From the NCBI GenBank assembly GCA_963730605.1, contig CAVSSM010000002.1, positions 192,001 to 256,000 of the forward strand: 64,000 nucleotides of DNA. The letters run 5' to 3'. Within the stretch, counting starts at the first letter, position 1; each line of letters begins with the position of its first letter. Shown one piece after another: positions 1,437-53,143 of the stretch. The translations under genes and the position numbers were made by a program. Source of the stretch: an uncultured Chlamydiae bacterium. Its GTDB lineage: Bacteria; Chlamydiota; Chlamydiia; Chlamydiales; SM23-39. Under the pieces are notes generated by a model that had not been told where the DNA came from, searched no databases, and was given only the letters and a program-made list of their open reading frames with translations.

Positions 1437-1469
1437 CCGGGGTCCCCGAAGATGTATCATCTTTGGGGT
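1437..1469 (+). repeat. 32-bp hairpin module copy
   Basis: GGGGT-CCCCGAAGATG-TAT-CATCTTTGGGG-T. Confidence 0.8.
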
Positions 1470-1578
1470 AGGGCGCCGGCAGATGCACGCTTTTTGAGCG
1501 GGAGCAGTATATTAGTGGGATAGGTTCAAGCAACTTTCTACTAGCCTCCATAGCCCTGTTCCATTAGACTTTACGGAT

Positions 1579-4527
1579 ATGTTACAAGAAGCCTTAGGCA
1601 CCGTCGGCCAAACCTACCGCGACTTTTTCCTTACAAAGTATTTGCCTCTTAGCGAGTTGCAGAGTACATTGGTGGAGCTTACGCACGAACCTTCAGGCGC
1701 GCGGGTCATCCATATCGCAAATAATGACCCCGACAATCTTTTTTGCCTATCGCTTAAGACTCTCCCGGACAGCTCGAATGGAGTCGCCCACATCCTTGAA
1801 CATACTGTCCTCTGCGGATCGAGAAAATACCCGGTGAAAGACCCGTTTTTCGCGATGACCCGCAGAAGTTTGAATACGTTCATGAACGCCCTTACGGGGC
1901 AGGACTTCACCTGCTATCCGGCAAGTTCGCAAGTTGAGAAAGACTTCTACAATCTCCTGGAGGTCTATCTCGACGCTGTCTTCCATCCCGAACTAAAGGA
2001 ATTAAGCTTTCTGCAAGAAGGGCATCGGCTGGAATTTGCCGAACCGAAAAATCCGAAGAGCCCCCTCCAATTCCAAGGGGTGGTCTATAATGAGATGAAG
2101 GGTGGCATGTCTTCGAGCGACAGCCGCCTTTGGAGGGCCGTTTTCAAACACCTTTTTTCAGATCTTCCCTATGCTCACAATACCGGTGGCGACCCAAAAG
2201 AAATCCCCAGCCTGACCTATGAAGAATTGATCGATTTCCACCGCAATTTCTATCATCCCTCTCGCTGTTTGTTCTTTTTTTATGGTAATATCCCCCTCTC
2301 GAAGCACCTCGACTTCATCGAGAAAAAAGCGTTGTCCGGCGTCTCGAAGCTTGCCGCTTTGCCGCCGATGCCGCGCCAAAAGCGGTTTACCGCTCCGATC
2401 TCCCGAATCGAAAAATACCCGGTCAGCAGCTCGGACTCTTTGGAAAAAAAGGCGATCCTCGCCTATGCCTGGCTCACGGCGCCGGTGACAGATCCTGGCG
2501 AGGTCTTGGCTATATCCCTTCTAGAATGCATCCTCATGGACAATGACGCCTCGCCGCTGAGGCAATCTCTCCTCAAATCGAAATTATGCACGCAAGCCTC
2601 CTCATCCATCGATCTGGAAATGAGCGAAATTCCCTGGCTGATCGTCTGTAAGGGATGCGAACCGGAGAATGCAGGCGCGCTCAAAGAACTCCTTTTTCAC
2701 GAACTTGGCAAGATTGCGGCAAACCCCATCCCTAAAGAGCAAATCGAAGCCGCTTTGCACCAACTCGAATTCGAAAGGACCGAAATCAACACCGATGAAG
2801 GTCCCTTTGGACTTACGCTCTTCATGCGCGCCGCCCTCATCGCCCAGCATGGAAGCGCTCCGGAAAGCGGCCTTTTGATCCATACCCACTTCAAGAGCTT
2901 AAGAGAAAAACTCGAAAACCCAGACACTCTGCCCAACTTGATCCGCTTTTATCTTTTAGACAATCCCCATTTTCTCCAACTCACCCTGGCTGCCGACCCG
3001 AATCTTGAAAAAGAGGAAGCCAAAGACGAGAGGAAAACATTGGACGCCATCCGCGCCCACCTCTCTCCCGAGATGGAAGCGAAGATTGTCGCCCAATCCG
3101 AGGCGCTGGCCCTCTATCAAGAAGCAACCGAAAATCAATCTCTCGAGTGCCTGCCCAAAGTGACGCTGCAAGACGTCTCTCCCCACGCCCGCAACATCCC
3201 CCTCGAGGAAACCGTAGCGGGGCAGATGACGGTTTTTCACCATTCCTGCTTTACCAACCAAATTCTTTACGCCGATCTCCTCTTCGATCTTCCCCATCTC
3301 TCGTTTTCCGACCTTCCTCTCGTTTCTCTTTTCGTCCGCTTTTTAAGCGAAGTGGGATGCGGAGGCATTGGCTATGAAAAGACGCTCGAATTTGCCCAAC
3401 GCTATACCGGAGGCGTCAACGCGTCTCTCTCTCTGCATGTCTCTCAAGCCGACCCTGATCGGTGCAGACCGACCCTATCTCTCAAAGGAAAAGCCCTTGC
3501 CCGGAATGGCTCTAAACTTTTCGAGCTTTTCTCTAAGATCATCTCCAGCCCTGATTTCACCGATGAAAGACGTATCCGGGAACTTTTATCCCAGCACGCC
3601 ACAGCTCTCCAAAATCGACTGACGAAAAATGCCCTGAGCTATGCGATCCAAACGTCTTTGAGCGGCTTTTCTTCAGCCTCTTCTGTGTACGATCAATGGC
3701 AGGGGCTTCCCTACTATGCTGCGGTCATGAGATGGGCGAAAAATCCGGGCGTGTTGGCCGAAGACCTCCTCCGGATGCAAAAATCGATCTTAGGCAAGGG
3801 CGCTCCGCATCTCGTCCTCTCCTGCGACAGCCCCTTTTTCCAAGACCTAAGAGTTGCTAGCTTCTTTGGCCTTAGCGAGAACCTGGGAGGAAAACCTTTT
3901 GAACCCTGGACCGGAAACTACCCTATCCCTGAGATTGTCCCCCAAGCGCGGATTTTGAGCGTGCCGGTCGCCAACACTGCTCTCGGGACGAGAACCGTCT
4001 CCTACCGCGATCCCGCATCCCCTCTACTCCTTCTTTCGACCGAGCTGCTCCAAAACGTCATCCTCCATAAGGAGATCCGGGAAAAAGGGGGCGCATATGG
4101 CTCGGAAGCCTCCTACTCCCCGGCTACAGGAAACTTTTATTTCACTTCTTACCGAGATCCCCATCTGGCCAAAACGATCTTGGCTTTTGAAAAAGCGATG
4201 GAAAAAATCGCCGCCGGGGGTTTTAATGAACGGCACCTCGAAGAAGCGAAGCTAGGGATCCTTCAGCAACTGGACGCCCCTATCGCTCCCGGATCCAGAG
4301 CTATGATGGCTTACGCCTGGAAGCGAGCCGAGCGCACGCAAGAAATGCGGGAAGCCTTCCGCAATCAAATCCTCTCAGCGACCCGGGCTGAAGTTTCCTC
4401 TGCGGTTGCGGAACACCTTTTGCCCCAAAAGAAAATCCTCGTCTCTTTTTTGGGCGAGGCCCTCTATGAAAAAGAAAAGAAAAAAATCAAACAGCCCCTT
4501 ACCGTCCTGCCGATCGAGACGACTTGA
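1579..4527 (+). CDS. M16C insulinase-family zinc metalloprotease (PreP-like)
   Basis: Inverted zinc motif HILEH in GVAHILEHTVLCGS; IREKGGAYG; SYRDP; 982 aa. Confidence 0.92.
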   Translation: MLQEALGTVGQTYRDFFLTKYLPLSELQSTLVELTHEPSGARVIHIANNDPDNLFCLSLKTLPDSSNGVAHILEHTVLCGSRKYPVKDPFFAMTRRSLNTFMNALTGQDFTCYPASSQVEKDFYNLLEVYLDAVFHPELKELSFLQEGHRLEFAEPKNPKSPLQFQGVVYNEMKGGMSSSDSRLWRAVFKHLFSDLPYAHNTGGDPKEIPSLTYEELIDFHRNFYHPSRCLFFFYGNIPLSKHLDFIEKKALSGVSKLAALPPMPRQKRFTAPISRIEKYPVSSSDSLEKKAILAYAWLTAPVTDPGEVLAISLLECILMDNDASPLRQSLLKSKLCTQASSSIDLEMSEIPWLIVCKGCEPENAGALKELLFHELGKIAANPIPKEQIEAALHQLEFERTEINTDEGPFGLTLFMRAALIAQHGSAPESGLLIHTHFKSLREKLENPDTLPNLIRFYLLDNPHFLQLTLAADPNLEKEEAKDERKTLDAIRAHLSPEMEAKIVAQSEALALYQEATENQSLECLPKVTLQDVSPHARNIPLEETVAGQMTVFHHSCFTNQILYADLLFDLPHLSFSDLPLVSLFVRFLSEVGCGGIGYEKTLEFAQRYTGGVNASLSLHVSQADPDRCRPTLSLKGKALARNGSKLFELFSKIISSPDFTDERRIRELLSQHATALQNRLTKNALSYAIQTSLSGFSSASSVYDQWQGLPYYAAVMRWAKNPGVLAEDLLRMQKSILGKGAPHLVLSCDSPFFQDLRVASFFGLSENLGGKPFEPWTGNYPIPEIVPQARILSVPVANTALGTRTVSYRDPASPLLLLSTELLQNVILHKEIREKGGAYGSEASYSPATGNFYFTSYRDPHLAKTILAFEKAMEKIAAGGFNERHLEEAKLGILQQLDAPIAPGSRAMMAYAWKRAERTQEMREAFRNQILSATRAEVSSAVAEHLLPQKKILVSFLGEALYEKEKKKIKQPLTVLPIETT

Positions 4528-4577
4528 ACTTATAAGCAAAATTCGCTATATTCTTAGTGAGAAAAGGAGCGGGTTTT

Positions 4578-6038
4578 ATGAAGAAGTTGATTCTCGTCGC
4601 TATTCTAGGCGTTTTCACGCTGACCACATGCTATGGGGGGGCGAATACGGCAGAGGAGCCATCCCAAGCGGCTGCTCGCGGAGCTACTCTTTTGGAGCAA
4701 ACCTCGCAGGCATTTACCCAAATCGCAGACAAAGCGATGCCGGCCACCGTTTTCATCAGAACGGAAATTGCGCAGCCGATGGGCGGCCAAGAGATGCAAA
4801 ACCCTTTTGAGATGTTCGGAGACGATTTCTTCCGCCGGTTTTTTGGCGGCCAGCAATTTTTCAACAACTTCCAATCCCAGCAGCCGCAGCCGCAAATCGC
4901 CGGCGGGTCTGGCTTTCTGGTCACTCAAGATGGTTATGTCGTAACGAACAACCATGTCATCAAAGACGCGTCCAAGATCACCGTCACCCTGAACGACGGC
5001 CGCGAATATCCCGCGACTGTGAAAGGCGCCGATCCCCGTACGGACTTGGCCCTGCTCAAGATCGACGAGAAGAACCTTCCCTTCCTGAGTTTCGGCGATT
5101 CCGACAACTTGAAAATCGGCGAATGGGTCGTTGCGATTGGCAACCCATTCGGAATTGGCGCTACCTTGACCGCTGGGATCGTCAGCGCCAAGGGGCGGCA
5201 AGATTTAGGGATCGCCTCCTATGAGGATTTTATCCAGACCGATGCGGCGATCAATCCGGGCAATTCGGGCGGCCCTCTTTTCAATCTTCAAGGCGAAGTG
5301 ATCGGGGTCAATACCGCCATCTTCACCCGGAGCGGCGGCTACATGGGAATCGGCCTCTCCATCCCGAGCCGGATGGCCCAAAACATCATCGATCAAATCC
5401 TTGAGACCGGAATCGTGAACAGGGCCTATCTCGGCATTATCCTTCAGCCGGTCGACAAAGACCTTGCCTCAGCCCTAGAGCTCGAGAATCAAGAAGGGGT
5501 CCTCATTTCCGATGTCGTGAAAGGATCGCCTGCCGCAAAAGCGGGCTTGCAGCAAGGAGATATCATTCTCCAAACCAACGATAAGCCGGTCAAGACGGTG
5601 ACAAAACTGCGCAATGATATCGCCCTGATGAATCCCGGCTCTGAAATCAAGCTGCAAATCCTCAGGAACAACAAGAAAATGATCTTGACCGCCTCCCTCG
5701 GCTCTATGGATGGGGAAGTGCTTTCAGCCGAGCTGATCCAAAAACTCGGAATCGACATCGAAAATCTCACTGCCGAGACAGCGTCGCGGCTTGGATTTAA
5801 TGGCATTCCCGATGGCATCGCGATCACCCGCGTCAAACCGGGCTCGCCTGCAGCCCAAGCGGGCCTTCGTCCCGGGTTTCTGATTACGGGAGTCGCAGTC
5901 GCCATGAACAACCAAAAGCCGGTCAAGAATACGGCGGAATTCGAAGAAGCGCTGAAGGATCTGGGCGATAAGAAGCATCTGATCCTGATCGTCCGCCAGC
6001 AGAATTTCCAGCGGTACTACACGATCAAAATCAATTGA
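4578..6038 (+). CDS. htrA: DegP/HtrA periplasmic serine protease with PDZ domains
   Basis: TNNHV, TDLAL, IQTDAAINPGNSGGPL; signal peptide; ATG 4578 after AAGGAG. Confidence 0.93.
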   Translation: MKKLILVAILGVFTLTTCYGGANTAEEPSQAAARGATLLEQTSQAFTQIADKAMPATVFIRTEIAQPMGGQEMQNPFEMFGDDFFRRFFGGQQFFNNFQSQQPQPQIAGGSGFLVTQDGYVVTNNHVIKDASKITVTLNDGREYPATVKGADPRTDLALLKIDEKNLPFLSFGDSDNLKIGEWVVAIGNPFGIGATLTAGIVSAKGRQDLGIASYEDFIQTDAAINPGNSGGPLFNLQGEVIGVNTAIFTRSGGYMGIGLSIPSRMAQNIIDQILETGIVNRAYLGIILQPVDKDLASALELENQEGVLISDVVKGSPAAKAGLQQGDIILQTNDKPVKTVTKLRNDIALMNPGSEIKLQILRNNKKMILTASLGSMDGEVLSAELIQKLGIDIENLTAETASRLGFNGIPDGIAITRVKPGSPAAQAGLRPGFLITGVAVAMNNQKPVKNTAEFEEALKDLGDKKHLILIVRQQNFQRYYTIKIN

Positions 6039-6061
6039 CCCTTGTTCATTGGAAATTGCTG

Positions 6062-6586
6062 TCAATCCACTCCCATGGACGAAAAGGAATCGAGCTGCGC
6101 CATGAGCTGCAGGATCCGGTCTAAGACGATCTGGGCTTCATAGACCGACTCGCTGCTGTGGATCATTTTGTGGAGCCTTTCCCTCTCCTCTAAAAAGAGA
6201 TCGGCCGGCTCAAAATCGGCCATCTTGCTCGGTTGCTTGCGGATCAGCTCTTCGTAATTGTCCACCTGCTTGCGGATATAGGCGAGCTCGGCTTCCCTCA
6301 TCTCGTCGCTTAGCCTCTCGACCTGGGCATTCATTTTCCCTTGCTCTTTTTCCGCAAACTGCAGCTTTTTTTGCAAAAGGGCGATTTTTTGCCTCTGTTT
6401 GGTGGGCGCCAGCTCCGCGACATTCGGAGTCGTCCTAAGGCCGCAGGCAGCGAGGAGAAGTAAAAACACGAGTTTCGGATAACAAAGTAGAGCTGATCTG
6501 CAAATCTTCGCTGGCAGATTTGGAGGAGGCGTGCCGCTATGGGCTTCGCCCGGCCGCTTAAACTCTGCAGAGAGATCCCTTTGCAT
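6062..6586 (-). CDS. hypothetical coiled-coil protein, possible lipoprotein (start uncertain)
   Basis: LLLLAAC lipobox-like motif then heptad-rich region. Confidence 0.55.
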   Translation of the reverse strand: MQRDLSAEFKRPGEAHSGTPPPNLPAKICRSALLCYPKLVFLLLLAACGLRTTPNVAELAPTKQRQKIALLQKKLQFAEKEQGKMNAQVERLSDEMREAELAYIRKQVDNYEELIRKQPSKMADFEPADLFLEERERLHKMIHSSESVYEAQIVLDRILQLMAQLDSFSSMGVD

Positions 6587-6716
6587 CTCAGCCTTTATTA
6601 TTCGAAATTCGCGTTAAGAGAATGATCTCATCCACTGATGATCCTAGGAGCCCGCAATTCTATCGGATCATTCTAATGGATTCCGCGATTATTACCCGAG
6701 CTATAAAATAGTATCA

Positions 6717-8732: not shown

Positions 8733-8743
8733 CTGTTCACCGT

Positions 8744-11078: not shown

Positions 11079-11798
11079 ATGCGCAGTCTCTACACTTGGC
11101 CTACTTTTCCCCGCGATTTAGAACCACCTGCCGCCAGGTCTCTGTCTTTCCTCTTTGTCCTCCAGGAATTTCTAGCTGCCTGTAGGCTGGTCGAGAGGCT
11201 CGAGAATGCGGCTCCGGAAGGAGACCTCGGCGGCATCTCTTCCCGCTTGGATCTCTTCCTCCTCTCCTCTTTGGATAACCCATTTGCCCAAAAGGGAGGC
11301 GCGCTCGACAAGCTTTGCTTTTATTGCGAAATTTTGCTACAAGGCTCGAAAGTCAGCGATGAGACTATCCTCGTGCTTCTGGAAGAGATGCAAAACGCCG
11401 TCATGAAAATCAGATCGAAACTGATCTTTTGGAAAAAGAAGGCGCCTCTTCGCGAGGAAATCGAAGCGGAATTTATGGAGCTCTACAAGCAGCTCCACCG
11501 GAACCTCGCCTCATTTTTTTCCTCCCTCCATGCTTTCCTCAAAGAATCCCGAACCGACGAGAACGTCCTCCTCTATCTCGTCGAACACCGCAAAGAGTTC
11601 AATCTTTACCTTGGCGAAAATGCGATCGAAAATCTCTTGAGCGTCTTTTTCCCCTCGGGGCCTCATGAACTTCGCGCAATGATCTGCGAAGGCTACACGC
11701 GCCGCGGCTTCGGCGCTTTTTACGCAGAGCAAGAACCGATGCTAGATGCCCTTGAATGGGAGACTCACGGATGTCCTTCCCCATCTCCGACGCGCTAA
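11079..11798 (+). CDS. hypothetical protein
   Basis: 239-aa ORF overlapping the next gene in an apparent operon with priA. Confidence 0.7.
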   Translation: MRSLYTWPTFPRDLEPPAARSLSFLFVLQEFLAACRLVERLENAAPEGDLGGISSRLDLFLLSSLDNPFAQKGGALDKLCFYCEILLQGSKVSDETILVLLEEMQNAVMKIRSKLIFWKKKAPLREEIEAEFMELYKQLHRNLASFFSSLHAFLKESRTDENVLLYLVEHRKEFNLYLGENAIENLLSVFFPSGPHELRAMICEGYTRRGFGAFYAEQEPMLDALEWETHGCPSPSPTR

Positions 11799-12610
11799 CT
11801 TTCATTCGGAGCGCGCTTCTTCTCCTTAAAGAAGAGCCGTTCATCCTCGCCTCGCCCGAAGATGCCGCCTATTTCCGCTTGCGGCATACGCATATGAAGG
11901 CGGCTCTTCACCCCAAAAACGATGCGTTTCTGGGGACCCCGGCGTTGCCTCTAGCGCCCATTGTGAACTCGCCGCCTCCGTCCAAGACGAGCGCGCAAAT
12001 CAAGACCGAGAAGCCGGTTCAAGAAGTTGCAAAGCCTAAAATGGAAGAGCCGCTGCCGGGGTCCCCAGAAACGCATCGTTTTTGGGGTGAAGAGCCGCTG
12101 CAAAAGCAAAGGGAGGGTGGCAAGCGCGAGGGATCCCATTTTTCTGCCATTTTAGAAAAAATCGCCCCAGAGCTTCCGCTCCTCGATGCGATTCCCGATG
12201 ACAAGACCGCAAAACAAATCGCAAACCGCTGGAAGACGAAAAACCAATCGGCGCCCATCTCGATCCTCTCGAGCGGAGAATTGCCCCAGCATAAGGCTCT
12301 TCTTGAGGAGATCGCAGTAGCCCTCGATGTGTACTTTGGAGAAGCGCGCCTGATCGTAGGAGATCCGATCGAAAAAGAAAAAGAGTGGAAAACGTTTCTC
12401 TCCGTCGGTAGCCTCAAGCTGATCGTCATTTGCGATTCGACTCTTTGGCAACTCCACAACCTACGGCAGTTCTACAAAGAGACCCCAGCCACCGGAGTCC
12501 GGACGCTGGGAGACGTGCCGGTCTTCCTTCTCCCAGACCTTTCCCTCTATCTGAAAGATCCTCTCCTCAAGCGCTCTCTTTGGAAAGCTCTATGCTCCAG
12601 ACTTTCGTAG
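11771..12610 (+). CDS. hypothetical protein preceding priA (probably the conserved chlamydial priA neighbour), with two in-frame hairpin modules
   Basis: ORF overlaps the priA start; C-terminus LSLYLKDPLLKRSLWKAL; Pro/Lys-rich linker holds the repeats. Confidence 0.75.
   Translation: MSFPISDALTFIRSALLLLKEEPFILASPEDAAYFRLRHTHMKAALHPKNDAFLGTPALPLAPIVNSPPPSKTSAQIKTEKPVQEVAKPKMEEPLPGSPETHRFWGEEPLQKQREGGKREGSHFSAILEKIAPELPLLDAIPDDKTAKQIANRWKTKNQSAPISILSSGELPQHKALLEEIAVALDVYFGEARLIVGDPIEKEKEWKTFLSVGSLKLIVICDSTLWQLHNLRQFYKETPATGVRTLGDVPVFLLPDLSLYLKDPLLKRSLWKALCSRLS
11900..12098. repeat. perfect 44-bp inverted repeat formed by two hairpin-module copies (11900-11943 and 12055-12098)
   Basis: GCCGGGGTCCCCAGAAACGCATCGTTTTTGGGGTGAAGAGCCGC and its reverse complement. 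Confidence 0.9.
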
Positions 12611-14841
12611 AGGTCCTCCTAGATCAAAATCTTGCGAAGCGGCTCGACTACGCGGTGCCAGAAGAGTGGGCATCCGAGATCGAGATCGGGATGCGGGTCG
12701 AGGTCCCCCTTAAAACTAAGGCGTTAAAAGCAACGGTGGTGAGGATTAAACAAGAATCTCTAGTACCAAACGTACGCCCGATCCTCCGCCTCCTCTCAAG
12801 CCAGTCTGAATTGACAGATGCCCAGTGGAAGCTCGCTCATTGGATGTCCCACTACTACGCCGCCCCTTTGCAGCGGGTGTTGAAATGCTTCATCCCCCCA
12901 AATGTCCGAAAAAACGTCAAAGCGAAGACCCAGATCTTCGTCTCCTTGAATGTGGCGAGGGGCAATGCTTTGAAGATTTGCGAGGTCCTCCGAAGAGAAA
13001 ATCCGGAAGAAGCGGCTGTATTGGAAGCGGTCTTACAAAGGAAAAGCTGTTTTGCGGCGGATCTCTCAAGGGAGCTGGGAGTTCCGATGAGCGCTATTGC
13101 CCGTCTCATGAAGAAAAAGATCCTTTCTTCAAAAAAGGCTCACCGAGAGGATGACATCCTCTTGGAAGAGGAATTTTTCAAAACGAAATCGAAATCACTC
13201 AATGTGGAACAAAAATCATGCTTTGATGCAGTCTCTGATTCTTTGTCAGGAAACCGTTTTGCCGCGCATCTCATCCACGGCGTGACCGGAAGCGGGAAAA
13301 CCGAAATCTACCTCCAGGCGATCACTCACGCGCTCGGGCAAAATAAAAGCGCCATCCTCTTAGTCCCCGAAATTTCTCTCACCTCTCAGACGCTTGCCCA
13401 TTTCCGCGCCCGTTTTTCTGAAAAAATCGCCATCCTCCACCACAAAAGAAGCCTAGGAGAACGGAGCTTAGCTTGGGAAAAGCTGAAATCCGGGGAGATC
13501 CGGATCGTCGTCGGCGCGAGATCGGCCATCTTCGCTCCCGCTCAAAATTTAGGCCTCATCATCGTAGATGAAGAACACGACAGCTCCTATAAACAGGGCG
13601 AAGAGGCCCCTTTCTACCATGCCCGCAACGTCGCCGTCATGCGCGCCCATTTGGAAAATGCCGTCGTTCTCCTCGGAAGCGCTACTCCATCTGTCGAATC
13701 GCGCTACAACGCCGAAATTGGCAAATACCGCCTCCATAAGATCGCCGCTCGCGCCACCTCCGCCCCTCTTCCCAAAGTCACTATCGTCGACATGAAAAAA
13801 GAACTCGAAAAAAGCGGCGGGTTCACCCATTTTTCCGAAGAGCTTTTGCAAGGGATCAAAGAGCGGTGCGATGCGGGAGAGCAAAGCCTCCTTTTTCTCA
13901 ACCGCCGCGGCTATCACCGGCTTCAAATCTGCAGCTCCTGCCGATCCGCCGTCAAATGCCCCCATTGCGACCTGGGGCTGACTTTCCATCGAGGCGAGAC
14001 CTCCGGGATCCCCAAAAAAGCATCGTTTTTGGGGGAGGGCCGCTTGCGGTGCCACCTTTGCGATTACCAGAGAGCGGCCCCGCGGGAGTGTCCCGCATGC
14101 GGGTCCTCGAACAGGCTCCAATTCAAAGGATTTGGGACGGAGCATGTGGAATGGTCGCTCCATGCCCTATTTCCCGATATCCGCACCCTCCGGATGGACC
14201 GGGACACAACGCAAAAAAAAGAGAGCCATGAAGAGATCTTCAAACAATTCCGCGCCCATAAAGCCGACGTGCTCATCGGCACTCAAATGATCGCGAAAGG
14301 CTTCCACTTCCCCTCGGTCACTCTCGTCGGCGTTCTTAATGCCGACGCCCCGCTCAGCATCCCCGATTTCCGCTCCGCCGAATCAGTCTTCCAACTCCTC
14401 ATCCAGGTGTCCGGGCGCTCCGGACGCTTGAACTTGCCGGGAGCTGTGATCCTCCAAACCTTCCTCCCCGACCACCCCGTCTTGAAGCTCGCCGCCGCCC
14501 AGGACTACGACGCCTTCTACAAAGCGGAAATCGAAGAGCGGCGCCTTTTCGGCTTTCCCCCCTTCGCCCACCTCGTAAAATGCCTTTTTTCCTCTCCCGA
14601 TCCCAAAGCCGCTGAGATGGCCGCAACCGAAGCTCATGCCGCCCTTGCCCAATCGCTTCCCCCGTTTGCCCAAGTCTTCCCTCCCGGCCCCTCCGGCCAT
14701 CCGAAAATCAAAGACCAATACAGGTTTCAGTTCCTCATCAAATCTCCCAAAATAGATCCATTAATCCCCATCTTGCAATCTATGCCAAAACTGAACGCTC
14801 AAATAAAAATTGATATAGATCCATTGTCAACATTTTTTTAA
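12592..14841 (+). CDS. priA: primosomal protein N' (replication restart helicase)
   Basis: GVTGSGKTEIY, IVDEEHD, SATPS, four CxxC pairs, GTQMIAKG, QVSGRSGR. Confidence 0.95.
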   Translation: MLQTFVEVLLDQNLAKRLDYAVPEEWASEIEIGMRVEVPLKTKALKATVVRIKQESLVPNVRPILRLLSSQSELTDAQWKLAHWMSHYYAAPLQRVLKCFIPPNVRKNVKAKTQIFVSLNVARGNALKICEVLRRENPEEAAVLEAVLQRKSCFAADLSRELGVPMSAIARLMKKKILSSKKAHREDDILLEEEFFKTKSKSLNVEQKSCFDAVSDSLSGNRFAAHLIHGVTGSGKTEIYLQAITHALGQNKSAILLVPEISLTSQTLAHFRARFSEKIAILHHKRSLGERSLAWEKLKSGEIRIVVGARSAIFAPAQNLGLIIVDEEHDSSYKQGEEAPFYHARNVAVMRAHLENAVVLLGSATPSVESRYNAEIGKYRLHKIAARATSAPLPKVTIVDMKKELEKSGGFTHFSEELLQGIKERCDAGEQSLLFLNRRGYHRLQICSSCRSAVKCPHCDLGLTFHRGETSGIPKKASFLGEGRLRCHLCDYQRAAPRECPACGSSNRLQFKGFGTEHVEWSLHALFPDIRTLRMDRDTTQKKESHEEIFKQFRAHKADVLIGTQMIAKGFHFPSVTLVGVLNADAPLSIPDFRSAESVFQLLIQVSGRSGRLNLPGAVILQTFLPDHPVLKLAAAQDYDAFYKAEIEERRLFGFPPFAHLVKCLFSSPDPKAAEMAATEAHAALAQSLPPFAQVFPPGPSGHPKIKDQYRFQFLIKSPKIDPLIPILQSMPKLNAQIKIDIDPLSTFF
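14003..14035 (+). repeat. hairpin module copy in frame within priA
   Basis: CCGGGAT-CCCCAAAAAAG-CAT-CGTTTTTGGGG; encodes GIPKKASFLG. Confidence 0.75.
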
Positions 14842-15206: not shown

Positions 15207-15405
15207 TATACCGCTCGTGATTCAAAAATCGGTTCTGGCGACGGCCCACCCCAAAGACGATGCGTCTTCGTAGACCCCGGACCCGGCGCCGGCAAGGCCT
15301 GGCTCAAATTCAGGTCTGCTTCCCTTAGAAAAAGCTCGAACCCCCGAGCTTTTTCAAGTGTCCGCAGCCTTGCCATATTCCGATTTTTGAATCCCTCTCG
15401 GTATA
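15207..15405. mobile_element. MITE-like element G with TATAC ends, carrying the hairpin module at 15248-15280 (minus)
   Basis: TIRs TATACCG-N5-GATTCAAAAATCGG at 15207-15232 and 15380-15405; internal terminator-like hairpin 15328-15355. Confidence 0.75.
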
Positions 15406-16501: not shown

Positions 16502-16502
16502 T

Positions 16503-39241: not shown

Positions 39242-40465
39242 ATGACATATAATCCCGTTATAGGAATTGGAACCGGTGCACCAGGAATGGGAGCCGCTGC
39301 CCCCCAAGATTTTTTTTCACCATTGCCCGAGTTGCCAATGGAGCTCATCCAGTCATTCTTAGGTCCAAAAAGCAACGATGCCCTCTCGCGGACAAATACA
39401 AGACTACGCGCGGTTTCATGCCCTTTTAGAGCCGCCGTTCTTCGCTTTGAATACAAAATTGCAGAGAACAAACCCATTACCCTACAAGAGCTAATAGAAC
39501 TAAAAAATCTCAATCCGGATTTTTCAAGTAGAATACCATTCAAACTTGATTTATCAAACAGCAATATTTCTGATGTCGGGCTGCAAGAGCTTATTGTATG
39601 CTTTCCTAATATTATTGAAATTAATGCACAACACTGTCAGGGTTTAACCGATGCCGGGCTGCAGCACCTGGCACATTTGAAAAATCTCACAAGCCTCGAC
39701 TTGACAGAATGCACCCAGGTCACCGACAACGGACTGCAGTTCCTGGCAAGTTTGATAAATCTCACAAGCCTCAGCCTGGAGGGATGCTCCCGGATCACCG
39801 ACGTCGGACTGCGGTGCCTGGCAAGTTTGAAAAATCTCACCACCCTCAACCTGGCATGGTGCCGCCGGATCCCCGACATCGGGCTGCAGTGCCTGGCAAA
39901 TTTGCCAAATCTCACTAACCTCAGCCTAGCACAGTGCACCCAAGTCACCGACATCGTGCTGCAGAGCCTGGCAGGTTTGATACATCTTACAAGCCTCGAC
40001 CTAGAAGGGTGCCACCAGATCACTGACGGGGGGCTGCGGCACTTGGCAGGTTTGATAAATCTCATAAGCCTCAACCTGACATGGTGCCCCAAGATCACCG
40101 ATACCGGGCTGCAGTACTCGGCAAGTTTGAAAAATCTCACAAACCTCAGTCTGAAGGGGTGCAACCGGATCACCGACAACGGACTGCAGTTCCTGGCAAG
40201 TTTGATAAATCTCACAAGCCTCAGCCTGGAGGGATGCTACCAGATCACCGACGGGGGGCTGCGGTACCTGGCGGCAGGTTTGGCAAAGCTCACACGTCTC
40301 AGCCTGAAGGGGTGCTTCCAGGTCACCAACATCGGACTGCAGCACCTGGCAGGTTTGGCCAAGCTCACAAGCCTTGACCTGTCAGAATGCCAACAGATTA
40401 CTGACGCCGGGCTGCAGTGCCTGGCAGGTTGTCGTATTATCCGATTTTTCGGTGTGTTCAGATAA
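39242..40465 (+). CDS. F-box-like / cysteine-containing LRR protein, effector-like
   Basis: LPELPMELIQSFL...LSRTN; about 11 repeats of 25 aa, LTSLxLxxCxxITDxGLxxLA. Confidence 0.85.
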   Translation: MTYNPVIGIGTGAPGMGAAAPQDFFSPLPELPMELIQSFLGPKSNDALSRTNTRLRAVSCPFRAAVLRFEYKIAENKPITLQELIELKNLNPDFSSRIPFKLDLSNSNISDVGLQELIVCFPNIIEINAQHCQGLTDAGLQHLAHLKNLTSLDLTECTQVTDNGLQFLASLINLTSLSLEGCSRITDVGLRCLASLKNLTTLNLAWCRRIPDIGLQCLANLPNLTNLSLAQCTQVTDIVLQSLAGLIHLTSLDLEGCHQITDGGLRHLAGLINLISLNLTWCPKITDTGLQYSASLKNLTNLSLKGCNRITDNGLQFLASLINLTSLSLEGCYQITDGGLRYLAAGLAKLTRLSLKGCFQVTNIGLQHLAGLAKLTSLDLSECQQITDAGLQCLAGCRIIRFFGVFR

Positions 40466-43405: not shown

Positions 43406-44046
43406 AGAACTGACGCATTAAAAAAATCAAAGAAGAATAGACGGTCGGGTTGCTTCCGTGCGCAGATCGCCGCCTGCTACGCGGCGGCCTTGTTCCGATT
43501 GTAGTATTTATTAAAATTTTAATAAACATACGCTCTATAATCAAAAAATCAGAGCCTTTATTTCATCATAAAATAAACTGAATGTTCTTATTCCACAGCA
43601 TTTCGTAATCGATATTTAAAAAACGCTGCTGCGTAGCAGGCGGCGATCTGCGCACGGAAGGGGCCCGCGAAGCGGGAACACGTGTGCAGCCGATGGCGGG
43701 TTCGGACAAAGAGCAATCCGCGCCGCAAAAGCGAGGAGGCGCACTCTGTGCGACGCACGAGCAAGGCGCGCCCCTAGGGGTCCCCGACGATGCATCATCG
43801 TTGGGGAATGGGGGTAGGGAGCGCTTCTGCCGCCGCGAGCAAGGGGTCCCAAAAAACGCATCGTTTTTGGGGTTCGCGTGGCAGGCGGCTATGCTATACC
43901 CGCGCGATCGGTGCTCGAAGTCCCAATCCCGCCACCTGGGCGTGCGGGGGCGGAGCGGAAAGGGGCCCCAAATCGTTTCGTTTGGGGAAAGTCCGCGAAG
44001 CAACTCGACCGTCTCTGGTTCTTTACCATTTTAATGCGTCAGATCT
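43406..44046. mobile_element. ~640-bp non-autonomous composite element E
   Basis: TIR AGAWCTGACGCATTAAAA, imperfect to ~50 bp; flanking direct repeat GTTCCGTTAGAT(AGAAC); internal 30-bp IR; three hairpin modules. Confidence 0.8.
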
Positions 44047-45272: not shown

Positions 45273-45287
45273 AAGGCGGGTTAGTAA

Positions 45288-46844: not shown

Positions 46845-46915
46845 AAAGTCTCCTTAAGCAGTTCTCCCGCCGGAGCTTCTTTGGTCTTACTTGGGTTTTT
46901 GGGATCTTGAGAAGG

Positions 46916-47062
46916 TCAGGCGAGAAGGGGGTTAGGTTGAGCCAGCGGTGCAACCCGTGGACACGCCCATCCCCGTTGTGGAGTTACCCACGCCGGCTCT
47001 GAAACTGGAGGTGGAATTGGCGTTCCCGTTATGCATCATCAACTCAAGGCCATTGCCTGATG
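46916..47062 (-). ncRNA. rod-shaped structured RNA, candidate 6S-like RNA or brnQ leader
   Basis: Nested minus-strand helices UCAGGC/GCCUGA, UUGAGUUG/UGGCUCAA, UGCA/UGCA, GGA-ACGCC/GGCGU-UCC with an asymmetric bubble; begins at the predicted TSS. Confidence 0.55.
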
Positions 47063-47068
47063 GTAGCC

Positions 47069-47097
47069 ATTCTAACACACACACCCCATATCGTCAA
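47069..47097 (-). promoter_or_regulatory. sigma66/70-type promoter
   Basis: TTGACG-17-TAGAAT with extended TG. Confidence 0.75.
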
Positions 47098-47105
47098 ACC
47101 CCCCG

Positions 47106-48122
47106 TTAGCCTTTTCGTTTTTTGAGGGTGTCCTGAAAAAATTCGATGGCAAATGCAGCAACTTCGCGATGGAGCTCTTCGCGGTCGCAGCAAGGGGGAT
47201 CGCTTTGCAGCGGTTTATTGAGGATGACTTTTCCGGTGTCGGTAACCCGGTTTAGAAGAGCATAATGGGAAATTTCTGCCCTGAGCATTTTTAGTTTTTT
47301 TGGGACCAAGTAGTGGATGATCTGAAAGGCGTGATCTTTAAAGGGAAGCACCTCGTCGCCAATGGCAGCGACAAGCCCGATCGGGGTTGTGATTTGTTTC
47401 AGCGAATCGGGAGTGTAAACGAAAACCGCGGGGCAAAGAAGAAGCATCGCCTTGATGCGGGGATCTTTGTACGACCTTGCGGCAGGAGACAAATCAAAGC
47501 GGTCGATCAGCTTCTCAGGCAGGGCGCTCCGGGTTAATTTCAGGGCAGCTTGCTTCACTCTGGCATTCTGGGCTTGTCCGCCGGCTAAAGCAAGGCCTGT
47601 CATCCCTCCCATCGAATATCCGATAAATCCGATCCGGTTGAAGTCGATGTCGGCTTGAAAGAGGTTGTCTTTTTTCAACTGGTTGAGAAGAAATGTAAAA
47701 TCAAGAGGCCGGTTCCAAAAACGGAGGCTCTCCAAGATATCGGAATGAAATCGCATGTCCCCGTAATGATCGACCGCCGCGACCAGGTAGCCCGCCTGGA
47801 CCAAACTTGCCGCAAGCCAGCTCGTTTCGCGCCGTCCTCCACAATGGCCATGGGATACGAGGATGAGAGGATATTTTGCCTTCGCTTTCAAGAGAGGCGC
47901 GTTGCGTACTTCCTTGGGATGCACCCAAATATGATCAGCCGATTCATCGATGGGCTTCAGGGCCGCGGTAGGATACCAAAGCTCGACGACGACAGGACGG
48001 TTGCGGGACGTGTCTAAATAGTCGATCGTCCGGACGCCGAGCGATTTCTCTGGATGCGAACGGTGCATCGCAAGAAGAGGCTGGCAAAATGCGAGGACAA
48101 GGAAAAGAAAAATCCTGACCAT
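47106..48122 (-). CDS. exported alpha/beta hydrolase
   Basis: Signal peptide; SHG; GYSMGG nucleophile elbow. Confidence 0.8.
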   Translation of the reverse strand: MVRIFLFLVLAFCQPLLAMHRSHPEKSLGVRTIDYLDTSRNRPVVVELWYPTAALKPIDESADHIWVHPKEVRNAPLLKAKAKYPLILVSHGHCGGRRETSWLAASLVQAGYLVAAVDHYGDMRFHSDILESLRFWNRPLDFTFLLNQLKKDNLFQADIDFNRIGFIGYSMGGMTGLALAGGQAQNARVKQAALKLTRSALPEKLIDRFDLSPAARSYKDPRIKAMLLLCPAVFVYTPDSLKQITTPIGLVAAIGDEVLPFKDHAFQIIHYLVPKKLKMLRAEISHYALLNRVTDTGKVILNKPLQSDPPCCDREELHREVAAFAIEFFQDTLKKRKG

Positions 48123-48136
48123 AAATGGAGTTTAAT

Positions 48137-48838
48137 TTATCGGGAGATTGGCAACAAGGCTACGACGCGTGAAAAGGCTTCCGTGGCGTCCCTCAGCTTG
48201 GGAGGCAGACAAAGGGCATAGGCGCCAGATTCTGGGATGAGGTCGAGGTGGGCAAGGTTTTCGAGGATGTATTTCCCCGCTCCCAAAATGCATTGGTGAA
48301 CTGGGAATGCATCGGTGTTCGAACCATCGGGCGATAAGGTGTCGATCCCAATGCCGGCGACTTTTTTGCGAAGGAGGAGTTTGGCTGCGTCTTCGGAAAA
48401 TCCCGGAAAATGCATTTTGCCTGCAACGTCAGGATTGCGGAAGCGTTGCGGCTCGGTCCAAAACTGCTCCCATCCAGTGCGAGCGATCACGAGAGCGTTT
48501 TGCGGGATGGAACCGCACCGCTTTTCATACTCTTCGATATCTTGAGGAAGAACAAAGAGATCGGGATCCATTCTGCTCCTCAGGTCGAGAACGCAGGCCG
48601 GAGTGAACAAGTTCTCGATCTCCAGATCTCCAATGTTTTTGCCGCCAGGGACAAAATGGCTCGGCGCGTCCATGTGGGTCCCCACGCCAGCATGGCTCTT
48701 GATATTTTGGACGCGAAGACCCTTTTCATAGTCCAATTTAACTTCGAGGCGAAATCCGCATCCTCCCGACCACGTAGGCGCCCCTTCATGCAAGGAATGA
48801 GTCAAGTCGACAAGGCGAAAATTTTTTAAAACATCCAT
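48137..48838 (-). CDS. cyclase family metallohydrolase (kynurenine formamidase-like)
   Basis: GTHMDAPSH, GIGIDT, ILENL. Confidence 0.85.
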   Translation of the reverse strand: MDVLKNFRLVDLTHSLHEGAPTWSGGCGFRLEVKLDYEKGLRVQNIKSHAGVGTHMDAPSHFVPGGKNIGDLEIENLFTPACVLDLRSRMDPDLFVLPQDIEEYEKRCGSIPQNALVIARTGWEQFWTEPQRFRNPDVAGKMHFPGFSEDAAKLLLRKKVAGIGIDTLSPDGSNTDAFPVHQCILGAGKYILENLAHLDLIPESGAYALCLPPKLRDATEAFSRVVALLPISR

Positions 48839-49698
48839 GAGCTGAAAAAGCGGACCGTTTTTTCCCAGGCGTCGGTTTTTGCCCGCTCATTATCGCGCGG
48901 ATTGCCGCCGAAGGCAAACCAAATTTTCGCGATCGGGTGCAACTCGGCGACGCCCTCCGTTGACGAGATGCCGTGGCCTGCCCTTGGATAGCTCAAATGA
49001 ACGCAGGAGATCGATGAACCCTTGGCTTGCAGCCTCTCTTGAATCAGCTCTGCGAAGAGAGTCGATGGCCACATTTGGTCATCTTCGGCCGAGATGAGGA
49101 GCAGCGGGCAATCGATTTTTTCCACAGGGATCTGCGATGCGGCGAAAGCGGCTTTGTCTTTCATCCCTTCGAGAAAAAAAGGAGTCAAGGCTAAAGCCGA
49201 CTCGGGAGTTTGGCCGAGGAGAGCACCGCTCGGAACCCCCGGAAAAGGAGCGCTAGGTCCAAGCGGCCGGCCCCGGTAGACCCAAGCCGGAGCGGGGCTT
49301 TGGATCGATCCGTAGATCGCGCTCGTCGGAACGGTCGCAGCGATCGCGGAGAACTTGGCAGGAAAAGTCGATCCAAGGAGAAGGGAAAGCTCTGCGCCGC
49401 GGGATACTCCCCATAAAGCGATCCGCCTCGGATCGATAGAGGGATGACGCATCGCCCAGTCGATCGCCTTGTCGAAATATTCGAGAGGGATTTCTTGCAG
49501 TGATGGAGGAAGTCCAGGGGTTCCGAAATAAGCGAGGCTGAGCGCCGCAAAGCCAGAGGAAGAGAGCTTTTCGGCTCTCGACTCATTGATCCCTCCCCGA
49601 AACCCTCCCAAAGTGATGATGAATGGATGGGGACCTTGTTTTTCGGGGAGATACAACGCGCCGACAAGGCCGAAATCTTGTACAGGTATCCGGTGCAT
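48826..49698 (-). CDS. acyl-CoA thioesterase / BAAT-family hydrolase
   Basis: EIPLEYF, GVSRGAE, DDQMWPS, YPRAGH. Confidence 0.85.
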   Translation of the reverse strand: MHRIPVQDFGLVGALYLPEKQGPHPFIITLGGFRGGINESRAEKLSSSGFAALSLAYFGTPGLPPSLQEIPLEYFDKAIDWAMRHPSIDPRRIALWGVSRGAELSLLLGSTFPAKFSAIAATVPTSAIYGSIQSPAPAWVYRGRPLGPSAPFPGVPSGALLGQTPESALALTPFFLEGMKDKAAFAASQIPVEKIDCPLLLISAEDDQMWPSTLFAELIQERLQAKGSSISCVHLSYPRAGHGISSTEGVAELHPIAKIWFAFGGNPRDNERAKTDAWEKTVRFFSSWMF

Positions 49699-49763
49699 TT
49701 ATAAGATTATCGAAAAAATTACGACACTCGTCAAGAATCAGTCTTTGGTTTATGGGAAGGGGT

Positions 49764-50657
49764 ATGGCCAGTCGAGAATACGAAACTTTTTACGGGGATG
49801 CCTTTTCCAAAAGGACAACCTCCCTCACTCCTTTGGAAGAAACGAGGGAAAACTTTGCAGCGTACTTGTTGGAATTCCCACCTGAGCCCGAGGTGCGCTT
49901 CGAGCCTTTTTCCATCGGCGAGCTTCCTGGAGCTTGGGCTTTTGCCCCCGAGGTGAACCGCCGCAGGATTCTTCTATTTTTTATGGCAGGTGGTTTTACC
50001 GCGGGATCGATCGAGTCGCATAAAAACCTAATCGGAAGGCTCTCCGCCGTAGCTGGCGCCGCCGTCTGCGCTATCCAGTATAGGCTGGCTCCCGAACATC
50101 CCTACCCCGCAGCTCTCGACGACGCCTTGACCGCATACCGGTGGCTTCTGCATCATCCGTATGCCCGCTCGAAAATCCTCTTCAGCGGCATTTCGGCAGG
50201 CGGCGGGCTGTCCCTATCGCTCCTCCTCCGACTCAAACTCGAAAAGATCGCGATGCCGGCGGGCGCCCTTGTCTTTTGCCCTTGGTTCGATCTCAAATTA
50301 AGCGGCGAAAGTTATAGGTCAAATAAAGAAAGAGACCTTCTTTCAACAGAAAGACTTTCTTGGTGCGCTGAAAAATACGCTGCTGGCAAAGATCTTGCAG
50401 ACCCGCTTCTTTCTCCCATTTATGGAGATCTTAGCGGACTGCCTCCCCTCTTCATCCAGGCGGGAACTAGAGATCTTCTTTACAGCGACGCTACAGAGCT
50501 CGTAAAAAAGGCTGAAAAGCAGGGAGTCTCGGTCACTCTCGACGTATGGCCGGATATGATCCACGCCTGGCAGATTTGCGCTCCACGATTTCCAGAGGCG
50601 CAAGAGGCGCTCGAGCGGGCCGGAGAGTTCGTGGACAAACTGTTCAAACTTCTTTAA
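49764..50657 (+). CDS. HSL-family esterase/lipase
   Basis: YRLAPEHPYPAALDD, GISAGG, MIHAW. Confidence 0.85.
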   Translation: MASREYETFYGDAFSKRTTSLTPLEETRENFAAYLLEFPPEPEVRFEPFSIGELPGAWAFAPEVNRRRILLFFMAGGFTAGSIESHKNLIGRLSAVAGAAVCAIQYRLAPEHPYPAALDDALTAYRWLLHHPYARSKILFSGISAGGGLSLSLLLRLKLEKIAMPAGALVFCPWFDLKLSGESYRSNKERDLLSTERLSWCAEKYAAGKDLADPLLSPIYGDLSGLPPLFIQAGTRDLLYSDATELVKKAEKQGVSVTLDVWPDMIHAWQICAPRFPEAQEALERAGEFVDKLFKLL

Positions 50658-51808
50658 AGGTAAATCCGCGGAAGCCGCTCGTTGAGCGATGCGAGCATTT
50701 CGTGGGGGATTGAATCGGCGTAGCGCGAGAGCTCAGAGAGAGTGATCTCATCTCCCCCCTGTTTGCCGATGAGCACCACAACATCTCCCACATAAGCTTC
50801 CCCTTTGCCGATATCGACCATGAATTGGTCCATGCAGATCGTTCCCGCGATGGGAAAACGCTCGCCCCGAATGAGCGCCGCGGCCTTTCTAAAAAGGCAC
50901 CTTCGGTACCCATCCCCATACCCCACGGGCACTGTCGCGATCCGCGTCTCTTCTTGCGTCCGATACGCATGGCCATAGCCGATTCCCGCCCCTTTTTGAA
51001 CGACTTTGAAATAGGAGACTTTTGCTTTCAGGCTCAAGGCTGGGGCGATCTCGCCTGCCGGATCAGTGTTGCCGTCGGGATAATAGCCATAGGCAAGAAG
51101 GCCGGGCCTTACCATATCGAAATAGGAATCCGGATAGTAGGCCACTCCTCCCGAGTTGGCCAGATGGCAAAGAGGGACGCGCCCTTTGACCTCGGCTGCA
51201 ATGGAACGAAACACCTCGATTTGATAGAAGGCAAAAGGATCGTTCGGGACGTCGGATGTGGCCAAATGGGAATAGATCCCTAGGATATCGAAACATCCCA
51301 GCCGTTCGACAAAAGAGAGAAGCGAGAGGGCATTTTCCGCCCGCACCCCGGTGCGCCGCATCCCTGTGTCGATTTCGATATGGACCTTGCATTTTCGGCA
51401 ATCCTTTCCCCTTTTTTTCGCTACCAGTTCCGCCTTGTACTTGGAGCTGATCGAAAACTCGAGATCGAATTCGATCAAATCCCCGATCTGGTCCTCATGA
51501 ATGGCGCCGAAAATCACGATCGGAATGGAAATTCCGGCTAGCCTGAGCTCTACGGCTTCTTTCAAACAAGAGACCCCGAGCGAATCGACTCCGGACTCCT
51601 CGGCGATTTTTCCCATCCGGCAAAGCCCATGTCCATAGGCGTTGGCCTTCACCGGAAGGCAAAAACGGCTCTTTCCAACGATCTTACGAACGCGCGCGAG
51701 GTTTTTCCTAAATTGCCCCGTATCGATCTCGATCCAGGCCGGATGGGCGCATACAGGCCGTAAATGTGTGACGACCCGGTTGCCCTCGATCATTTTCTGC
51801 AACGTCAT
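50654..51808 (-). CDS. alr: alanine racemase
   Basis: VKANAYGHG, DTGMRR.G, HLANS, VGYGDG, CMDQ. Confidence 0.93.
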   Translation of the reverse strand: MTLQKMIEGNRVVTHLRPVCAHPAWIEIDTGQFRKNLARVRKIVGKSRFCLPVKANAYGHGLCRMGKIAEESGVDSLGVSCLKEAVELRLAGISIPIVIFGAIHEDQIGDLIEFDLEFSISSKYKAELVAKKRGKDCRKCKVHIEIDTGMRRTGVRAENALSLLSFVERLGCFDILGIYSHLATSDVPNDPFAFYQIEVFRSIAAEVKGRVPLCHLANSGGVAYYPDSYFDMVRPGLLAYGYYPDGNTDPAGEIAPALSLKAKVSYFKVVQKGAGIGYGHAYRTQEETRIATVPVGYGDGYRRCLFRKAAALIRGERFPIAGTICMDQFMVDIGKGEAYVGDVVVLIGKQGGDEITLSELSRYADSIPHEMLASLNERLPRIYL

Positions 51809-51947
51809 GATCTCAGCATAGACTATACCTCGCGCAGGAAGGTTTTGTGAATTTTGACTCTGCGAGCTAAAGCATAATCGATTCGCATTTTGAGCATACT
51901 GCTATTTTTGAAAAAATTGAACAGTCTGATATCATGCCCCAATCCAT

Positions 51948-52427
51948 ATGGAAGAGCTAATTGGCATCCTCGAAGAAACCCCATGGTGGGTTTTTGTGGT
52001 CTTCTTCTATTTGGTTGTGATTGGCGTAAAGGCGCTGCAACCAAGTACAGTATCTATCTATAGACTCATTATCCTACCCGTTATCCTAACGGTCTGGGGG
52101 CTCGTAGGCATCAAATGGAGCCTCTCTCCCCTCCTCGCATGGGGTGTTTCTGTTGCCCTGGGAATCGGCCTCGGCTGGCTTTTTGTCCGCAAATGGAAAA
52201 TCCGTTACGACCGGAGGCGCGCCACTCTCCATCTTCCGGGCACCTGGTCAACCCTTGTCTTTGCGCTGACGTTCTTCGGCATCAAATACTTCTTCGGGTT
52301 CTACAACGCGACCCATACTGAGATCCCCTTCGAGTTAATGGTCGCAGAAAGCGCTGCCGCTGGCGTCATCGCGGGAATGTTCCTCGGGCGTCTTGCCTTC
52401 TTCTGGAAAAGGTACGAGGAAGTGTGA
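51948..52427 (+). CDS. hypothetical integral membrane protein
   Basis: TPWWVF start; about five TM segments. Confidence 0.75.
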   Translation: MEELIGILEETPWWVFVVFFYLVVIGVKALQPSTVSIYRLIILPVILTVWGLVGIKWSLSPLLAWGVSVALGIGLGWLFVRKWKIRYDRRRATLHLPGTWSTLVFALTFFGIKYFFGFYNATHTEIPFELMVAESAAAGVIAGMFLGRLAFFWKRYEEV

Positions 52428-52437
52428 AACTAAATCA

Positions 52438-52731
52438 TCAAGTAGAGAATAAATCTTCGTAGAGTCTTTTCGCGAAAAGCTGCACCTTTTGACTCAATAC
52501 GGCTGCATTTTGGTTCTGGTCGAAAAGACGGAGATCCTTTTCTTTGAGCCGCACGCGATTCATGGCATTTGCGGCGATCCATTTATGGATTTTGTCGATC
52601 GTGTCGGCCAAAGCGGATTCCGTGATCAGCAGATCTTGGTCTTCCCATTGCTTTCTTAGCTTTTCTCTCGCGCGCTTCGTCTTGATGCTCTCCGGAGCGA
52701 TGCGGCTCCGCTTCTCCTGTTTGCTTTGCAT
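52438..52731 (-). CDS. hypothetical protein
   Basis: GGAGG RBS before ATG 52731. Confidence 0.55.
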   Translation of the reverse strand: MQSKQEKRSRIAPESIKTKRAREKLRKQWEDQDLLITESALADTIDKIHKWIAANAMNRVRLKEKDLRLFDQNQNAAVLSQKVQLFAKRLYEDLFST

Positions 52732-52853
52732 GCGACCTCCAGTCACCGATCTCATCCTAGTAAAAAATCCTTTAAAGATCCAGTGGAAAGAAGGTTCATT
52801 TAAATCTGGAATTTAATACCCGCACTCTTTAGAATTATCGGCTAACTCTCTCC

Positions 52854-53143
52854 GAGACTGTCCACAAACTCAGGCGGCAACAAGTGGCTGAGCGAGACGC
52901 ACGGGGTCCCCCCCACCGACGCATCGTCGGAAGGGGTGTGAAAGCCAGATCGAAAGAGCGAAGCTCCGGTTCGAGAGAGGAAGACATTCTTGAATACGAA
53001 GGATTCCGAGCGAGAATCGATATGGCTGCGGAAACGCGAGAAGATCCAGTGGACCTTCGCAGCGCAGAGCAGATGAGCGAATGCGAATCGGCCCGGAGGG
53101 AGTCGCAGCCAGCCAATTGTCGCCTGAGTTTGTGGACAGTCTC
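52854..53143. mobile_element. MITE-like element D (290 bp) carrying the hairpin module at 52903-52937
   Basis: Perfect 23-bp TIR GAGACTGTCCACAAACTCAGGCG. Confidence 0.85.

Follow-up and report, generated by a model that had tools for sequence, protein, structure and literature searches.

In a 64,000-nt stretch of DNA from an uncultured Chlamydiae bacterium of the SM23-39 lineage (GenBank assembly GCA_963730605.1, contig CAVSSM010000002.1, positions 192,001 to 256,000; referred to here as the window), we identified a hairpin of about 35 nt that recurs as a small mobile module without a gene. Its insertion sites are other repeats, further copies of the hairpin itself and genes, where the reading frame is kept; about half of its copies in the genome of this bacterium (the own genome) then ride inside miniature inverted-repeat transposable elements (MITEs). 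The insertions are discrete with imprecise ends, new copies resemble their close neighbours, and the same one-strand fold is seen in two phyla. Our preferred but tentative reading, to which we give a probability of roughly 45%, is that the module, which inserts on its own, is likely to spread by a protein-started, nick-primed copying from a nearby copy.

In the window, 7 matches to the hairpin pattern were found at three or fewer mismatches, while 0.12 were expected and the maximum in 100 shuffles was 3. A covariance model, to whose training set six window copies belonged, recovered a further window copy at 52899-52941 (E 3e-5). A preliminary description of this DNA, made from the letters alone, had listed nine copies; eight of them are upheld by the pattern or the covariance model (Table 1). 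The remaining one, at 43962, obtained no covariance-model score at E<=1 and is a shorter sibling, a 21-nt hairpin with a different loop. Two more copies of this sibling occur in the own genome (C2:348537 and C7:149642), with the G4 leader kept and the loop different. The inner stems quoted in that description are accurate, and copies are present, as it had said, both in MITEs and in coding sequence, namely two in the open reading frame (ORF) 11771-12610 and one in priA. The multi-copy elements that carry window copies at 1289-1511, about 15207-15400 and 52850-53147 have inverted ends.

The 35-nt unit reads S-C, GGGGY, CCCC, six free bases, G, CAT, C, six partners, GGGG, T and G-S. It folds into a basal stem of 2 bp, a five-base GGGGY bulge that faces a single T, a stem of 11 bp and the triloop CAT, and its G/C tracts are 4 nt long. 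The leader is GGGGT or GGGGC in most copies. A conserved GGGGT leader and a conserved CAT or TAT loop had been proposed before, and both stand with a correction: the loop is nearly always CAT and rarely TAT, and the 2-bp basal stem is also conserved, with S-C before the leader and T-G-S after the stem. In the metagenome copies described below, the basal pair is G-C in 48 and C-G in 43 of 95.

The proposal that structure is selected over letters agrees with the pairing data. The 62 distinct inner stems of the metagenome copies were 90.9% paired, against 54.7% when their arms were permuted, and the covariation score of 0.597 (0.160 after shuffling), obtained from 35 chosen copies with relatedness uncontrolled, was reached by none of 500 shuffles. 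One strand matters, as had also been suggested. On the leader strand, G.T pairs outnumber A.C pairs by 83 to 30 in 96 distinct chlamydial hairpins and by 31 to 5 in the metagenome stems, and this strand was the more stable one in 4 of the 5 window copies that were folded. Copies within genes show no relation in orientation to the host gene, 15 being sense and 11 antisense. This speaks against selection at the mRNA level and in favour of single-stranded DNA, in which the fold probably acts. No leading or lagging bias was observed when the copies were compared with GC skew (71 against 86, 20 ambiguous). The loop and the bulge, one helical turn apart, may together form a putative protein-binding site, consistent with the earlier suggestion that a protein would recognise the hairpin.

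We applied the exact pattern to the 103 genomes (53 genera) of one chlamydial family; 21 genomes in 12 genera had matches. A scan of the genome collection relied on a stem pattern of the chlamydial type and is blind to other phyla. A looser pattern, applied to 291 sampled genomes from other chlamydial families, hit 10 of them through 15 strings, and not one of these strings is the hairpin. A metagenome scan yielded at least 120 loci, 117 of them with at least 9 of the 11 pairs. Most of these matches have GC-rich stems, and only 6 loci encode proteins at least 60% identical to those of the own genome. Twenty-two look-ups of neighbouring proteins gave a taxon for six loci, all Acidobacteriota: four fall with 90% clusters that have Pyrinomonadaceae members, one is nearest Vicinamibacterales and one nearest Blastocatellia. 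Chlamydiota and Acidobacteriota thus share one fold, whose stems are AT-rich or GC-rich, and the idea of a chlamydial family was too narrow. The pattern had no match in viral contigs, the hairpin had none in plasmid and phage records (an acidobacterial copy gave weak partial plasmid matches only), and no copy matched Rfam at E<=1. Likewise, no match was found to the insertion sequence (IS) loci or to the intron loci examined.

The own genome (2.22 Mb, 83% complete) carries about 150-175 copies. Pattern matches numbered 54, 122, 152 and 167 at 0, 1, 2 and 3 mismatches, respectively, and 144 matches to the covariance model were found among the 150 candidates scored. A descriptor based on structure only returned 149 CAT-loop hairpins, against 0-1 in three order-5 Markov genomes, which confirms the excess over shuffled sequence that was looked for. 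Of 177 relaxed matches, 95 are in larger multi-copy repeats, 33 in tandem arrays with periods of 36-63, and 49 alone; one subfamily has A-rich tails. The 95 copies in multi-copy repeats are what one would expect if the hairpin were merely an internal part of MITEs moved by DDE transposases. Against this, host MITEs come in both filled and empty forms, the hairpin occupying several different internal positions, from which it follows that the hairpin is a passenger inserting on its own. Furthermore, unique sequence flanks the other 82 of the 177 copies, which are solo or tandem, and unrelated host repeats carry the hairpin. The empty MITE alleles and the solo insertions refute this explanation as the whole story, and we regard it as extremely improbable. 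Solo copies (own genome C4:67.0-67.5 kb; L080; L006) adjoin tRNA genes and directly follow a sequence that resembles what may be an rnpB 3' end.

Filled and empty sites were compared with a sister species, G003, of 86-91% identity, for which 1.19 Mb of roughly 1.7 Mb were compared. Orthologous flanks were found for 58 of 175 copies, and 20 clean filled/empty pairs were obtained, with net gains of 24-114 nt (26-51 for single insertions). In all 12 pairs inside called genes the gain is a multiple of 3, so that the intragenic copies keep the frame, a point on which the preliminary description had asked for a check; the two exceptions are an intergenic gain of 38 and a gain of 26 at the start of tpiA. 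We attribute the frame keeping to selection on an element without fixed length. In the own genome, 31 tandem or solo copies lie in 24 well-scoring ORFs (two ORF matches are doubtful), with several reading frames and both strands in use; menE contains five copies, and the copy in priA lengthens the gene by 13 codons, placed between two pairs of cysteines, in comparison with four relatives. At tpiA (C1:664483) the copy adds 26 nt after the start codon, and this gain may be a frameshift, a slippage site or a homopolymer or assembly error. At L012:12166-15979, aspS and pnp are split into several frames, which suggests indel errors in the assembly.

Among pairs of paralogues, the net insertion measured 26-54 nt and the overlap with the target varied between none and about 8 nt; such pairs were available for 80 of 324 copies, many of them being tandem self-matches. 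Target overlaps are longer in other genomes. The targets are variable, GCATC is not over-represented, the target duplication is not fixed, and no common motif was found at the insertion joints, which may have drifted. Inserts of the metagenome set are commonly 39 nt long, and the four bases at their end are similar to the four that precede the element (70 pairs, p<0.0005); this four-base likeness is absent from the chlamydial set (p 0.37). At several filled sites (L057, L131, L050, L056 and L074) AA is changed to TT in the second copy of the duplicated target.

New copies tend to arise close to older ones. Fifteen of the 54 events outside larger repeats have another event within 300 nt, against 0.77 expected and a maximum of 6 in 3000 simulations. 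All 17 inner letters are identical in 4 of 14 close pairs, two of the four being inverted, compared with 2.3% of all pairs. The clearest window case is the copy at 11908-11942, which shares its stem and a 6-nt tail with the oppositely oriented copy at 12056, at a distance of about 150 nt, and has short G/C matches at both joints. Self-nesting was observed in 6 of the at least 120 metagenome loci, where a 39- or 40-nt insert stands at the loop of the outer copy. Such local and often inverted copying, with short joint matches and tandem arrays, could also be produced without a dedicated protein, if replication halts at the hairpin and template switching and slippage between G/C runs then copy it, with common descent explaining the shared features. 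This explanation, which also fits the fact that no partner gene was found, is in our opinion rather unlikely. The loop, the bulge and the stem length have remained fixed while the six inner pairs were fully turned over in two phyla, and a purely physical process should let the loop letters drift too; the G.T bias on one strand also speaks against it.

In the copying process that we prefer, a putative protein would bind the loop and the bulge on transiently single-stranded DNA. At a nearby nick or gap, a 3' end would act as primer on a short match beside the donor hairpin, and host synthesis would probably copy the hairpin together with a few flank bases of the donor. The extended end would then return to the target, where a small duplication or deletion would be left. 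Slippage afterwards would build the tandem arrays, and MITEs would spread the copies further.

The preliminary description had likened the element to REP sequences, which are mobilised by RAYT or TnpA, enzymes of the HUH (Y1) type. According to such an explanation, the G-rich leader would act as a guide and a RAYT, a class 3 enzyme or an IS200/IS605 TnpA would peel off and paste the single strand. The leader-plus-hairpin design and the strand specificity fit HUH substrates (PMC8266576, cited, like the other papers below, for the parts available to us), several acidobacterial host repeats start with a CnGA foot like class 3 repeats, and the four-base likeness in the metagenome set might reflect left and right cleavage sites, although it is missing from the chlamydial set. 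The gene searches do not sustain the link. No RAYT exceeded the NF047646 cut-off in any of the 103 chlamydial family genomes. Y1 transposases did not co-occur with the hairpin (8 of 21 positive against 32 of 82 negative genomes, p 1), the hairpin was found at none of 30 Y1 loci, and the Y1 genes of the family are ordinary IS200/IS605 TnpA genes with their own ends, unlike the hairpin. In the own genome, the Y1 search returned only a broken IS605 tnpA/tnpB pair (C2:395.5-396.8 kb). IS91-type Y2 genes co-occurred weakly (5 of 21 against 4 of 82, p 0.016), were not found in the own genome, and had the hairpin at none of 14 loci. We consequently judge an HUH route to be unlikely.

A short structured RNA copied into nicks by reverse transcription, with a group II intron or another reverse transcriptase (RT) acting in trans, would be compatible with the variable duplications, with the A-rich tails of one subfamily and with the stem of 11 bp, equal to one A-form turn. 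The own genome moreover contains three intact group II intron copies with a 445-aa RT frame, which are near-identical and hence recently mobile. No copy of the hairpin lies in the intron, however, and RT genes were found in 4 of 21 positive and 17 of 82 negative genomes, that is, without association, with the limit that multi-copy introns may be lost from assemblies. The hairpin occurred at 1 of 31 RT loci, in a MITE about 1.4 kb away. The copies have no orientation bias to transcription, and the very local hops fit a DNA donor in cis better. An RT route therefore appears quite improbable.

Among the other enzymes, neither IS110 (2 of 21 positive and 11 of 82 negative genomes) nor Ku (5 of 21 and 8 of 82, respectively, p 0.13; no match in the own genome) was associated with the hairpin. 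A Ku gene is present in G003 (L219:7650-8618), and Ku genes occur in 13 of the 103 family genomes. One IS110 fragment of the own genome, without the hairpin, was rejected as a candidate, as was a single GIY-YIG match in a 608-codon frame; no DUF559 was found in the own genome. GxxExxY nuclease genes were present in 19 of 21 positive and 30 of 82 negative genomes (p 1e-5), and strong matches in 16 of 21 and 29 of 82, respectively. As the only tested candidate that is present in the own genome and also co-occurs with the hairpin, GxxExxY (PD-(D/E)XK), a small nuclease, is our guess for the protein. GxxExxY genes of the chlamydial family (L322-L351) are bracketed by long inverted repeats of 7-nt units; each gene has its own repeat, and the right one begins at the stop codon.

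Several points weigh against the copying process that we favour and against its candidate nuclease. The hairpin was found at none of 30 GxxExxY loci. Four-helix-bundle genes co-occur as strongly (10 of 21 against 5 of 82), with the hairpin at none of 20 such loci, yet are not found in the own genome or G003, so that the GxxExxY co-occurrence may reflect shared ecology or kinship; the genomes in these counts are not independent. Scanning of neighbouring ORFs (150 of 257 in one set and 110 of 207 in another) revealed no transposase, recombinase or RT, and no recurring gene family stands beside the copies. For the chlamydial copies, 6 of 17 targets lay in hairpin loops where 6.3 were expected (p 0.67), which is no enrichment. 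The clustering could partly reflect tolerant genes, and fold-back correction can create compensatory changes in a DNA palindrome without selection. Finally, the genome seems to carry indel errors, and the element lengths are thus uncertain by one base.

Table 1. Hairpin copies, host genes and group II introns (window positions unless a contig is given; pattern matches at three or fewer mismatches)
Positions	Strand	Feature	Pattern match	Basis
1437-1471	+	Hairpin module with TAT loop, inside TA-flanked MITE (1289-1511)	1439-1468 +	Pattern, covariance model
11771-12610	+	Chlamydial ORF, function not assigned; two inverted hairpin copies in low-complexity linker		NCBIfam: no match
11908-11942	-	Young solo copy, absent from sister species G003	11911-11940 -	Flank comparison
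12056-12090	+	Older solo copy, common to G003; likely donor of 11908-11942 copy	12058-12087 +	
12592-14841	+	priA, host gene of 14003 copy		TIGR00595 match
14003-14037	+	Solo copy in priA	14005-14034 +	
15246-15280	-	Copy inside multi-copy TA-ended element (about 15207-15400)	15249-15278 -	Pattern, covariance model
43775-43809	+	Copy in composite repeat region 43406-44036	43777-43806 +	Pattern, covariance model
43841-43875	+	Second copy of region 43406-44036, different stem	43843-43872 +	Pattern, covariance model
43960-43992	+	Shorter sibling hairpin, GGGGC leader, 21-nt stem-loop; no model score		
52899-52941	+	Copy with expanded C run inside MITE 52850-53147		Covariance model
C1:286.5-288.4 kb; C4:1-1952; C8:29.8-31.7 kb		Group II intron copies		

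The window contains other repeats as well. Four DNA sequencing runs, which covered the window in short pieces only, contained no joint spanning a hairpin copy, a result without weight as evidence. Contigs from three sequencing runs show, at window position 6525-6528, a palindromic insert of another kind, 38-39 nt long, where the window itself has none; this makes up a second family of tiny mobile elements. MITE families that lack the hairpin are also found at 14864-15025/37660-37826, 28418-28600/37512-37857 and 786/8744/40495, and long ORFs made of tandem repeats with 24-nt and 75-nt units lie at 53422-55401 and 39242-40465.

How repeats of fewer than 40 bases move without a gene, terminal repeats or a fixed target has been an open question since the SDR (small dispersed repeat) and RPE (Rickettsia palindromic element) reports. 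The hairpin offers a sharply defined substrate, in which loop, bulge and stem length are fixed and the stem letters are free, together with filled and empty alleles that can be dated in one sister species, and it is active in a chlamydial family in which no RAYT passed the cut-off. It adds loops of 11-17 residues to genes such as priA and menE, and its occurrence in an environmental chlamydial family and in soil Acidobacteria implies transfer between phyla or a shared host factor. If protein-started local copying is true, the element would make a well-defined test case for the movement of the smallest mobile DNAs. A bolder and rather doubtful extension is that it might be the founding member of a class of minimal, structure-defined, cross-phylum elements, spread by a GxxExxY-type nicking nuclease (or an unrecognised enzyme) and host repair synthesis, not by HUH enzymes, and that the same route might also serve SDR- and RPE-like insertions.

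The hairpin was compared with the described kinds of small repeats. Intrastrand triplex motifs (TM and BoxC; PMC4666352) are alike in having G/C tracts able to supply a third strand, but in the part of that paper available to us three tracts of at least 6 nt are required, against 4 nt in the hairpin, and TM-ECO is always intergenic. TIRYT-associated repeats, with the consensus GGGGWSAS (PMC3733652; PMC6006769 subclass 2.1), likewise start with a G4 motif; these are terminal inverted repeats around a Y1 gene, whereas no gene of that sort was found for the hairpin, which also departs from the consensus at the eighth base. It differs from IS200/IS605-derived elements of the PATE type in having one hairpin only and in the ends of the family TnpA elements, and from MITEs, defined by terminal inverted repeats of 15-30 bp and a fixed duplication, in its basal stem of 2 bp and its overlap of none to about 8 nt or more.

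REP sequences and REPINs with RAYT, including the class 3 TnpA-Y1 repeats of Acidobacteria, have in common with it a hairpin of 20-50 nt that carries a conserved tag on its 5' side, a high number of copies, an asymmetry between the strands, pairs in inverted arrangement and the presence of some copies within genes (PMC3733652, PMC6006769, PMC8266576), and the hairpin is indeed a strand-specific single-strand structure of this size and of high copy. The difference is that it carries the tag GGGGY within a bulge that a basal stem closes off, and not GTAG/GTGG, CGTC or CnGA at a free foot, that its chlamydial family has no RAYT over the cut-off, and that it parasitises REP-like repeats. With RPEs it shares in-frame palindromic insertion into housekeeping genes of an intracellular bacterial lineage (PMC10969869), as the 12 of 12 pairs and the priA and menE alignments show for unrelated genes, but an RPE is about 150 bp long and encodes a conserved peptide (PMC10969869), whereas the hairpin has 35 nt, several frames and variable flanks. 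A description of the motif was not found in the mobile-repeat literature covered in part here, including the supplements of PMC3733652 and PMC6006769, PMC3184786, PMC2703918 and 10.64898/2026.09.22.753630; the figures, some supplements and the original SDR report lay outside this comparison.

We conclude that the element is a mobile hairpin of very small size, that its fold is unusually well defined and its range spans two phyla, and that no enzyme was found for it. The closest known kind is the SDR repeats of cyanobacteria, and by analogy the hairpin may work like the SDR modules of Nostoc. The Nostocaceae SDR1-8, reportedly described by Elhai et al. 2008 (Genome Res 18:1484), are said to be 21-27 nt long, to insert in frame and to nest in other repeats. 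As far as the available parts of the later papers go, SDRs are very small gene-less mobile modules without a known enzyme, SDR5 has HIP1 as its precise insertion site, and reports of SDRs are confined to Nostocaceae (PMC4390886, PMC5861425). The hairpin resembles them as a small gene-less module with empty and filled alleles, and differs, in a comparison made by description only, in its length of 35 nt, its imprecise ends, its lack of a fixed target, its defined bulged fold and its presence in two distant phyla.

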